Positions 1-39,235 of a stretch of 43,469 nt of DNA are shown here, one piece after another. Each line of letters starts with the position of its first letter. The stretch's first letter is position 1. This DNA comes from Escherichia phage vB_EcoM-689R6: the sequence record ON470584; one strand, written 5' to 3'. A program made the position numbers and the translations under genes. The notes under the pieces were generated by a model. The model made no database searches. It saw only the letters and a program-made list of their open reading frames with translations, and was not told the DNA's origin.

Positions 1-27
1 TTCCTGCTTTTGCTAGGGAGATCTACC

Positions 28-582
28 ATGCTTATTGGCTATGTACGTGTGTCAACAAATGACCAGAACACAGATCTACAACGTAATGCGCTGAACTGTG
101 CAGGATGCGAGCTGATTTTTGAAGACAAGATAAGCGGTACAAAGTCCGAAAGGCCGGGACTGAAAAAACTGCTCAGGACATTATCGGCAGGTGACACTCT
201 GGTTGTCTGGAAGCTGGATCGGCTGGGGCGCAGTATGCGGCATCTGGTCATTCTGGTTGAGGAGTTGCGCGAACGTGGCGTTAATTTTCGCAGCCTGACG
301 GATGCTATTGATACCAGCACACCGATGGGGCGTTTTTTCTTTCATGTGATGGGTGCCCTGGCTGAAATGGAACGAGAACTGATTGTTGAACGAACAAAAG
401 CTGGACTGGAAGCTGCTCGCGCACAGGGACGAATTGGGGGACGTCGTCCCAAACTTACACTAGAACAATGGGCGCAGGCCGGGCGATTAATTGCATCAGG
501 CATTCCTCGCCAGAAGGTGGCGATTATCTATGATGTTGGTGTGTCAACTTTGTATAAGAGGTTTCCTGCAGGGGATAAATAA
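28..582 (+). CDS. pinE: Serine recombinase / DNA invertase (Hin-Gin-Pin family)
   Basis: Translation begins MLIGYVRVSTNDQ, the resolvase/invertase N-terminal catalytic motif (Ser at the VRVST position), with a C-terminal HTH. ATG at 28 is preceded by AGGGAG at 15-20; the ORF track extends to a TTG at 10. Length 184 aa. Followed by mcrA as in prophage e14. Confidence 0.85.
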   Translation: MLIGYVRVSTNDQNTDLQRNALNCAGCELIFEDKISGTKSERPGLKKLLRTLSAGDTLVVWKLDRLGRSMRHLVILVEELRERGVNFRSLTDAIDTSTPMGRFFFHVMGALAEMERELIVERTKAGLEAARAQGRIGGRRPKLTLEQWAQAGRLIASGIPRQKVAIIYDVGVSTLYKRFPAGDK

Positions 583-683: not shown

Positions 684-1517
684 ATGCATGTTTTTGATAA
701 TAATGGAATTGAACTAAAAGCTGAGTGTTCGATAGGTGAAGAGGATGGCGTTTATGGTCTAATCCTTGAGTCGTGGGGGCCGGGTGACAGAAACAAAGAT
801 TACAATATCGCTCTTGATTATATCATTGAACGGTTGGTTGATTCTGGTGTATCCCAAATCGTAGTATATCTGGCGTCATCATCAGTCAGAAAACATATGC
901 ATTCTTTGGATGAAAGAAAAATCCATCCTGGTGAATATTTTACTTTGATTGGTAATAGCCCCCGCGATATACGCTTGAAGATGTGTGGTTATCAGGCTTA
1001 TTTTAGTCGTACGGGGAGAAAGGAAATTCCTTCCGGCAATAGAACGAAACGAATATTGATAAATGTTCCAGGTATTTATAGTGACAGTTTTTGGGCGTCT
1101 ATAATACGTGGAGATCTATCAGAGCTTTCACAGCCTACAGATGATGAATCGCTTCTGAATATGAGGGTTAGTAAATTAATTAAGAAAACGTTGAGTCAAC
1201 CCGAGGGCTCCAGAAAACCAGTTGAGGTAGAAAGACTACAAAAAGTTTATCTCCGAGACCCGATGGTAAAAGCTTGGATTTTACAGCAAAGTAAAGGTAT
1301 ATGTGAAAACTGTGGTAAAAATGCTCCGTTTTATTTAAATGATGGAAGCCCATACTTGGAAGTGCATCATGTAATTCCCCTGTCTTCAGGTGGTGCTGAT
1401 ACAACAGATAACTGTGTTGCCCTTTGTCCGAATTGCCATAGAGAATTGCACTATAGTAAAAATGCAAAAGAACTAATCGAGATGCTTTACGTTAATATAA
1501 ACCGATTACAGAAATAA
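684..1517 (+). CDS. mcrA: HNH endonuclease, 5-methylcytosine-specific restriction enzyme McrA-like
   Basis: 277 aa with C-terminal HNH motif CENCGKNAPF...LEVHHVIPLSSGGADTTDNCVALCPNCHRELH. AT-rich gene immediately downstream of pin, matching the e14 pinE-mcrA arrangement. Confidence 0.8.
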   Translation: MHVFDNNGIELKAECSIGEEDGVYGLILESWGPGDRNKDYNIALDYIIERLVDSGVSQIVVYLASSSVRKHMHSLDERKIHPGEYFTLIGNSPRDIRLKMCGYQAYFSRTGRKEIPSGNRTKRILINVPGIYSDSFWASIIRGDLSELSQPTDDESLLNMRVSKLIKKTLSQPEGSRKPVEVERLQKVYLRDPMVKAWILQQSKGICENCGKNAPFYLNDGSPYLEVHHVIPLSSGGADTTDNCVALCPNCHRELHYSKNAKELIEMLYVNINRLQK

Positions 1518-1750
1518 AATTGTTTATTAAAGTCACATTTAAGACGTAATACCTTACAGGGTAAAAATTTTCTCTGATCTTAACTTCTGCAAATGTTAAC
1601 TGCTTTTTTTATGCTAAAAATGGTTATCAAAACTCAAAAACACATGTTGATAATCAATGAGTTATGGAAATGCTAAGAGCTAATGAGTTATATGCAAATT
1701 AGTAAAATTATGTTGCTATGTCAAATAGTTACGATTTAATCATCTAACTA

Positions 1751-1810
1751 ATGCTGCGCCATATGGGCTGGACTGAAGCCGCAGACCTGATTGTTAAAGG
1801 TATGGAAGGC
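1751..1810 (+). pseudogene. Displaced 3' fragment of icd (icdC-like), truncated by the assembly gap
   Basis: 1751..1810 encodes [20 protein letters not shown] and is the exact reverse complement of 37509..37568 inside the intact icd gene. Sequence upstream of 1751 has no icd similarity. Confidence 0.8.
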
Positions 1811-1820: not shown

Positions 1821-2309
1821 TCCACGTCCGTCATCCCAGCCACGAATAAATTCACCGCGTAAATCAGGCAATTTATTTGTCGGGTAAGCCTTTGCCAGTT
1901 CCGGGTATTCTTCAGCAGAAAAAGCTGCTCCGTTGCATTTTAGCCAGCCTGTTGGCGGAGTGGCTGAGGGCCACGGAACAGGCACACCAACAGGTAATGC
2001 AGAGCCTTCTCCCAAACCAAGGTTTTCGAGAGCCGTTTTCACCGTGCCGTCCGATTTGATATCGCCAAACGGATTTTTGCGGCTTAACAGTAGCGCACTA
2101 AGCGCGGTAAGCAGCTGGTCGTGCCGCCCCTTCTCCAGGCTGGCACCGGATGCCTCCACCACGCCGCAAAGCTCCTCCTGCAACATGTCAAAGTAGTCAT
2201 CATCCAGATCGGTGGCAGGTGTGCCGGTCTGGGGGTTACCACGGGTAAAACCGTTCTTACCCGCGCCGAACTTATCCTTCTGCGCGGTTTTCGTGTCTAT
2301 ACGATGCAT
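1821..2309 (-). CDS. Tail fibre protein, N-terminal part (3' end lost in gap)
   Basis: ORF starts at 2309 directly after the gp48-like gene and runs into the N gap. Contains a tail-collar-like motif ([19 protein letters not shown]...[17 protein letters not shown]). An invertase crossover site lies inside the coding sequence. Confidence 0.65.
2007..2032. other. Din-family invertase crossover site (hix/gix-like 26-bp site)
   Basis: TTCTCCCAAACCAAGGTTTTCGAGAG: imperfect 12-bp inverted half-sites around a central AA. Closely resembles the Hin hixL site TTCTTGAAAACCAAGGTTTTTGATAA as I recall it. Located within the tail fibre gene. Confidence 0.6.
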
Positions 2310-19161: not shown

Positions 19162-19185
19162 NNNNNNNNNNNNNNNNNNNNNNNN
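19162..19185. other. Assembly gap (run of 24 N)
   Basis: 24 consecutive N characters in the HNH-terminase intergenic region. Confidence 0.95.
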
Positions 19186-37403: not shown

Positions 37404-38654
37404 TTACATGTTCTTGATGATCGCATCACCAAACTCTGAACATTTCAGCAGCTTAGCGCCTTCCATCAGACGTTCGAAGTCATAGGTTACGGTCTTGGCG
37501 TTGATTGCGCCTTCCATACCTTTAACAATCAGGTCTGCGGCTTCAGTCCAGCCCATATGGCGCAGCATCATCTCAGCGGAGAGAATAATAGAGCCTGGGT
37601 TTACTTTGTCCTGACCGGCATATTTCGGCGCAGTACCGTGGGTGGCTTCAAACAGGGCGCATTCGTCACCGATGTTTGCGCCTGGGGCGATACCGATACC
37701 GCCGACCTGTGCAGCCAGAGCGTCAGAAATGTAGTCACCGTTCAGGTTCATACAGGCGATAACATCATATTCAGCCGGACGCAGCAGGATCTGTTGCAGG
37801 AATGCGTCAGCAATCACGTCTTTAATGACGATCTCTTTGCCGGTATTCGGGTTTTTAACTTTCATCCACGGGCCGCCGTCGATCAGTTCACCGCCAAACT
37901 CTTCACGCGCCAGCTGGTAGCCCCAGTCTTTAAACGCGCCTTCGGTGAACTTCATGATGTTGCCTTTGTGCACCAGGGTCACAGAGTCACGATCGTTAGC
38001 AATTGCGTATTCGATCGCTGCACGAACCAGACGTTTGGTGCCTTCTTCCGAACACGGCTTAATACCGATACCGCAATGTTCCGGGAAGCGAATTTTCTTC
38101 ACGCCCATCTCTTCACGCAGGAATTTAATCACTTTCTCGGCGTCGGCAGAGTCAGCTTTCCATTCGATACCCGCATAAATGTCTTCCGAGTTTTCACGGA
38201 AGATAACCATATCGGTCAGTTCAGGATGTTTAACCGGGCTTGGGGTGCCCTGATAGTAACGTACCGGACGCAGGCAGATGTAGAGATCCAGTTCCTGGCG
38301 CAGGGCAACGTTCAGAGAACGAATACCGCCACCAACCGGAGTGGTCAGAGGGCCTTTAATGGCAACGCGATATTCACGAATCAGATCAAGGGTTTCAGCA
38401 GGCAGCCAGACATCCTGACCATAAACCTGTGTGGATTTTTCACCGGTGTAAATTTCCATCCAGGAGATTTTACGCTCGCCTTTATAGGCTTTCTCGACTG
38501 CAGCGTCGACCACTTTCAGCATGGCTGGGGTTACATCTACACCGATTCCATCACCTTCAATGTAAGGGATAATCGGATTTTCAGGAACGTTGAGTTTGCC
38601 GTTTTGCAGGGTGATCTTCTTGCCTTGTGCCGGAACAACTACTTTACTTTCCAT
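37404..38654 (-). CDS. icd: Isocitrate dehydrogenase (NADP)
   Basis: 416 aa, [46 protein letters not shown]... through ...[10 protein letters not shown]; full length. Confidence 0.95.
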
Positions 38655-38966: not shown

Positions 38967-39235
38967 TAACTAACAGGATGCTATTTGGTCAAAATTTGAC
39001 ATTACTCGACTCAGCGACTATCTCACTTTGAGCACTATTGGGAAAATTATCAAAAGTCATGGTTGAAGCGACAAGCAACGAGTAAATTATGGCATCCCCC
39101 CTTTTTGAGGTTCACATGAAACGCTTTGCACTGATAGCTGTGAAACTCGTTGCCTTTACTGGTTCTGCATCTGCTGCAACCGAAGAAATCAACTTCAAGT
39201 AACAGAAACACTATATAACAATGGAGTGTTGACAA

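Follow-up and report, generated by a model that had tools for sequence, protein, structure and literature searches.

The window analysed here is the whole 43,469-nucleotide stretch of sequence record ON470584 (Escherichia phage vB_EcoM-689R6), which we found to be a draft scaffold with two runs of N, at 1811-1820 and 19162-19185. The first of these lies between a contig carrying an invertase gene and a contig which begins inside a tail-fibre gene. The features on which the analysis turns are the following:

1-27, plus strand: leader of pin with its ribosome-binding site; in complete relatives, 27 bp separate base 1 from the end of a partner crossover site upstream
28-582, plus strand: pin (pinE), an intact serine DNA invertase gene of 184 aa (Resolvase 8e-52, HTH_7 4e-14)
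46-117, plus strand: putative Fis-dependent recombinational enhancer within the 5' end of pin, positioned as the annotated enhancer of P1 cin
684-1517, plus strand: mcrA, an HNH type IV restriction enzyme gene which marks the right end of e14
1748-1810, plus strand: fragment of icdC, in which the contig stops; icdC is the second copy of the icd 3' end, found at the right junction of the prophage
1811-1820, no strand: scaffold spacer of 10 N with no true adjacency, the left contig being attached by the wrong end
2309-1821, minus strand: tail-fibre gene (an open reading frame with a Collar domain), with its ATG at 2309 and running into the N run at 1820
2020-2309, minus strand: constant N-terminal part of the fibre gene (nt 1-290, approximately 97 codons), outside the invertible segment
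2007-2032, minus strand: Pin crossover site on the fibre-gene side of the P segment, assigned by identity to K-12 e14 and likeness to cix and gix, and unique in the window
1821-2019, minus strand: first 199 nt of variable end A of the fibre (Collar domain), inside the invertible segment and cut by the contig end
2313-2897, minus strand: ymfQ, a Mu gp48-like baseplate wedge gene which directly precedes the fibre gene in the late operon
34337-35467: int, a lambda-type integrase gene
37404-38654: icd, intact

From 1821 onwards the minus strand carries the genes for the fibre, ymfQ, baseplate J, gp46, V, P, the DNA circulation protein and the tape measure. Beyond these tail genes lie head, lysis and lambdoid control genes, followed by the integrase and icd. 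Integration in icd with a duplicated 3' end was evident, as the last 60 bases of the first contig (1751-1810) recur without a difference within the window's intact icd; int stands at one end of the element and pin-mcrA-icdC (1-1810) at the other. E. coli genomes carry the annotation pinE - mcrA - icdC for the stretch 1-1810. The pin-mcrA region has 96% identity to that of E. coli K-12. On its sequence the window looks like a complete e14-type prophage in icd, with tail genes resembling those of phage SfV. It should also be noted that the interval between int and icd (35567-37278) encodes a 350-aa GmrSD_N (DUF262) protein and an overlapping 220-aa open reading frame without a Pfam match, the latter unannotated in the RefSeq relative; K-12 e14 has lit, ymfD and ymfE there. 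The genes of this interval may be defence cargo.

The initial annotation had placed a Pin invertase near the fibre gene, and the intact 184-aa product of 28-582 bears this out. The protein has a resolvase domain with the catalytic Ser9 within YVRVSTNDQ and a C-terminal helix-turn-helix, the arrangement of a small serine recombinase. It shares 83% identity with P1 Cin, 7 of its 184 residues are not those of K-12 PinE, and its match to the Gin structure 3UJ3 scores 1e-93. The stretch at 46-117 agrees with the P1 enhancer at 55 of 72 positions and with K-12 pinE at 70 of 72, although this is coding DNA and the likeness is not independent evidence. A regular expression for the Fis motif, too degenerate to decide the matter, gave no match in the enhancer-homologous stretch of pin and one palindromic match in P1. 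We infer a putative enhancer at 46-117 from position and similarity alone.

The 26-mer at 2007-2032 is TTCTCCCAAACCAAGGTTTTCGAGAG, which can be written as TTCTCCCAAACC AA GGTTTTCGAGAG. It has the layout of a Din-family crossover site, with imperfectly symmetric 12-bp half-sites at 2007-2018 and 2021-2032 around a 2-bp AA core at 2019-2020. All 26 positions are identical to the left site of the E. coli K-12 e14 P segment, which lies in stfP, and the published 16-bp e14 inverted repeat CCTTCTCCCAAACCAA was found at 2005-2020 (PMC12529663). The annotated P1 sites cixL and cixR each agree with it at 20 of 26 positions, with the AA core at the annotated crossover point, and the Mu gix sites, taken from the annotated boundaries of the G segment, agree at 18 of 26. 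The site is in frame within the fibre gene, as had been proposed; the crossover falls after nt 290 of the gene, and the minus strand encodes ENLGLGE there.

At this site, too, the constant part of the fibre meets the variable part. Fibre residues 1-105 have 95% identity to K-12 StfP, and the DNA of the constant part up to the site has 97-98% identity to the fibre genes of Shigella phages SfI, SfII and SfV. The variable part belonging to end A (residues 96-251 of the complete fibre) has 61% identity to K-12 stfE over a 174-column alignment.

A chance likeness of the 26-mer to hix and gix, without function, would be compatible with the short AT-rich cix matches of 16-18 of 26 positions which occur elsewhere in the window. 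However, only one 26-mer in the whole window reached at least 20 of 26 positions with a cix site and none did so in 20 shuffles, the 26-mer is identical to a site in experimental use, and a natural inversion has its breakpoint exactly there (below). We therefore rejected a chance match, whose probability we regard as negligible. Matches of 18 of 26 to P1 cix were seen at 39047, 40221 and 40367 in the AT-rich host flank, where mononucleotide shuffles lead to an expectation of 0.35; these are probably an effect of composition, and none has an invertase or fibre gene near it. The comparisons confirm 2007-2032 as what, judged by its sequence, is a genuine recombination site of the Pin/P-segment switch of an e14 prophage.

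A site alone is no proof of invertibility, because phage SfV has the identical 26-bp site with neither a partner nor an invertase. In SfV orf21 the constant fibre part and the site (locus extract L008, 1449-1474) are the same as here and the fibre continues with an end-B-like sequence, GLGEAAKRD. The SfV fibre genes are followed by O-antigen conversion genes and int, which leaves the fibre fixed, and the SfV site is a Din site orphaned at the junction of two modules. The window itself has no second site, neither by a search with the 14-bp inner half-site plus core (up to 2 mismatches) nor by one with the full partner 26-mer (up to 3 mismatches), and the homology to SfI, SfII, SfV and SfIV, which extends over 7.3 kb of tail and baseplate genes at 97-98% identity, starts exactly at the site (2006 onward). 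It could then be supposed that the site at 2007-2032 is likewise a fossil, an old junction for module exchange whose segment or partner has been lost, leaving the fibre fixed as in SfV. What speaks against such a loss comes from complete genomes of close relatives.

Three complete E. coli genomes (NZ_CP145634.1, NZ_AP041134.1 and NZ_AP041137.1) have 100% identity to both window pieces, and all three share the same missing 1672 bp, which link window base 1821 to base 1 (two of the three were read through). In NZ_AP041137.1 the match is 100% over the whole 1672 bp. The pin-mcrA-icdC contig (1-1810) is, by this comparison, joined by its icdC end, and its pin end should face base 1821. The 10 N at 1811-1820 mark no true adjacency, because the contig is attached by its icdC end and it is the pin end which adjoins the fibre contig in relatives. 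The missing DNA holds the partner site, the rest of end A, two convergent genes for assembly proteins of 197 aa and 146 aa and, in inverted orientation, a 131-aa open reading frame whose C-terminal domain is Gp53-like (end B). Alternative fibre C-termini with their assembly genes, for which a search had been advised, are hence to be found there in relatives as end B, tfaA and tfaB.

The partner site in relatives is TTCTCCCAAACC AA CATTTATGAAAA, with the same inner half-site and core as the window site and in inverted orientation. It ends 27 bp before window base 1, its core is 1831 bp from that of the fibre-side site and its crossover lies 67 bp before the ATG of pin. An inverted second site upstream of pin, as anticipated, is therefore absent from the window and present in the complete genomes which are identical to both flanks; the partner site of ON470584's own strain is inferred from these identical relatives. 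The initial annotation had supposed that the partner and the alternative fibre ends were in the gap. They do lie in DNA missing from the scaffold, as judged from the 1672 bp of relatives, but not at the position given to the 10 N.

No mutation has truncated the fibre gene at 1821-2309; it is cut by the assembly break inside the invertible segment, and the complete fibre with end A in NZ_CP145634.1 is 251 aa long. Repeats do not account for the gap as far as the three closest complete genomes show, the missing 1672 bp being single-copy in them. The break might reflect a culture of mixed orientations. This is no clean explanation, because the contig ends do not fall exactly at the crossover points, one being 186 bp inside and the other 40 bp outside. 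The second gap (19162-19185) has 24 N for only 14 bp, which read TTAACCAGGAGTGC in NZ_CP145634.1; it separates a gene for an HNH endonuclease from the beginning of the gene for the terminase small subunit.

We constructed the post-inversion sequence in silico and searched for its new junction (600 nt). At 100% identity over its 600 nt, the predicted flipped junction is present in NZ_CP195459.1 and NZ_LR890714.1, two further complete genomes which also match the pin contig at 100%. NZ_CP195459.1 becomes equal to NZ_AP041134.1 after a 1831-bp core-to-core inversion, with 0 mismatches over 7.7 kb as against 1339 when unflipped. All five genomes which match the pin contig at 100% have the invertible segment, with orientation A in three and orientation B in two, and for three of the five both sites were read directly. 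Both orientations were seen in this way among the genomes of relatives rather than in the window's own strain, for which the window shows orientation A. The switch works in nature, because prophages of different isolates which are the same in all else are set apart by precisely the 1831-bp inversion that was predicted; the same difference upholds the proposal that inversion swaps the C-terminal part of the fibre as in the Mu G and P1 C segments.

Loss of the segment or partner is difficult to reconcile with these genomes: every one with an identical pin contig has the segment, both orientations occur, and the three which are also identical over the fibre piece share the missing DNA. Moreover, the 186 bases beyond the site, toward the contig end, are identical to end A of the complete relatives, and the neighbouring contig, which starts 40 bp from the partner crossover of relatives, carries an intact pin. 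We consider it very unlikely that the site is a fossil in this prophage.

Besides the inversion, the only differences between these loci are copies of IS200C; the closest complete genomes have one or two of them just past icdC, beyond what the window's first contig covers (locus extracts L001 7178-8001, L002 366-824 and L005 1-824). A contig search with an exact 49-mer from the missing segment gave a Shigella flexneri complete genome as its only match. This genome, Shigella flexneri SFBU0723 (CP182557.1; locus extract L009, 5600-7555), has a related two-site invertible fibre segment at 90-92% identity, with sites of 24/26 and 21/26 approximately 1.9 kb apart.

Each orientation yields an in-frame fibre with a different C-terminus and an assembly gene of its own, as would be expected of a host-range switch. 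The product of orientation A is a 251-aa fibre with a Collar domain together with a 197-aa Caudo_TAP protein, and that of orientation B is a 215-aa fibre with a Gp53-like_C domain together with a 146-aa Caudo_TAP protein. The locus had been called a shufflon, a term for systems with more than two crossover sites and several segments, such as R64 Rci and p15B Min. Relatives have two sites, none inside the segment, and one segment, and the enzyme is a serine invertase rather than an Rci-type tyrosine recombinase. The label is therefore unfit, and the arrangement is that of a two-site binary switch.

With high confidence we interpret the locus as the P-segment switch of an e14-type prophage integrated in the icd gene of E. 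coli, in which inversion swaps the tip of the fibre. The constant fibre part (2309-2020) ends in the 26-bp Pin site. In the complete genome the 1831-bp invertible segment (core to core) comes next; it holds end A with its own assembly gene, pointing one way, and assembly gene B with end B, pointing the other way, and the inverted partner site closes it. By analogy with the Hin/Gin/Cin family, Pin dimers would bind both sites and bring them into synapsis with Fis bound to the enhancer in the 5' end of pin; Ser9 of Pin would then cut the 2-bp AA/TT core, and the subunits would rotate and religate the DNA with the segment inverted. A population of lysogens would in this manner yield virions of two receptor specificities.

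The system is one already known, the e14 P segment itself. The P segment and Pin were described in 1985 by Plasterk and van de Putte, as cited in PMC4272514, and inversion has been re-measured several times since (PMC4272514, PMC12529663). In K-12, PinE-dependent inversion of the P segment and mixed populations of e14 have both been shown by experiment (PMC12529663; PMC4272514), and PinQ and PinR also act on the K-12 segment in trans (PMC12529663). The element described here shares with K-12 e14 the integration in icd and the order ymfQ - fibre - tfa - tfa' - fibre end' - pin - mcrA - icdC. Alongside the identical fibre-side site, the partner site differs at 1 of 26 positions and the segment is 1831 bp core to core, compared with 1827 bp in K-12. 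However, K-12 e14 is reduced to a 15-kb remnant which lacks head and tail genes, whereas the prophage here is approximately 39 kb with a full virion module. The cargo also differs: tfaA has 64% identity to TfaE and tfaB 55% to TfaP, and end B, whose C-terminal domain is gp53-like, has no relationship to the StfP variable part of K-12. The MG1655 reference has the orientation opposite to that in the window.

The likeness extends to the G segment of Mu with Gin, where the order is again constant part, site, Sv-U, inverted U'-Sv', site and an invertase gene 67 bp past the crossover (gixR-gin), and the baseplate genes here are Mu-like (gp47, gp48). In contrast to the present locus, the Mu segment is 3.06 kb rather than 1.8 kb, its sites agree at only 18 of 26 positions, its constant fibre part is 509 nt (approximately 170 codons, compared with approximately 97 aa), and the head and regulatory genes here are lambdoid/HK97-like and not those of a transposable phage. 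The C segment of P1 with Cin is similar in its sites (20/26, with the AA core at the annotated crossover), in the 83% identity of Cin to Pin, in the frame in which the site is read (LGL(R/G)E, being YLGLRE in P1) and in the position of the enhancer, here putative, at the 5' end of the invertase gene. It differs in that one cix overlaps the 3' end of cin, whereas here the partner lies upstream of pin, and in that the segment is 4.2 kb and the constant part of S approximately 454 codons, compared with approximately 97 here.

A different role, main or additional, would be the defence of the lysogen: inversion would alter an open reading frame divergent from pin, consisting of MMPFARYFCIFINVGLGE plus the unused fibre end, and the altered product would block phage adsorption. 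In complete relatives this open reading frame starts 3 bp before window base 1 (MMPFARYFCIFINVGLGE...) on the minus strand (locus extract L001, 5065-4670) and takes the fibre end which is not on the fibre; it is the counterpart of K-12 stfE, 'StfE2' in PMC12529663. The K-12 P segment is reported to give rise on inversion to StfE2, a protein that hinders the adsorption of T2 (PMC12529663), and the leader open reading frame of the complete relatives is annotated both ways, at 131 aa and 167 aa. However, its ribosome-binding site is poorly spaced by eye, and the fibre ends are unlike those of K-12, with no similarity between end B and the StfP variable part and 61% identity of end A to stfE. As the prophage looks complete, virion host-range switching is also the simpler role. 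We consider a defence role unlikely here; it is compatible with the P-segment switch of the virion fibre and not exclusive of it. A dual job in an intact e14/SfV-like prophage, with inversion serving both as a virion receptor switch and to provide a pin-divergent chimeric protein which protects the lysogen, is conceivable but unlikely. If it were true, the anti-phage targets would differ from those of K-12, since the fibre ends differ.

As a discovery the P-segment switch in this prophage carries little weight, and its practical value is one of annotation, concerning the contig join, the cut fibre gene and the missing DNA which is known from relatives. For the biology of the family, a cargo unlike that of K-12 fits the view of Din sites as junctions for the exchange of fibre modules; SfV has this site as an orphan. 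Unlike in the K-12 remnant, the full virion module appears to be present, and the switch could therefore alter the host range of a viable phage.
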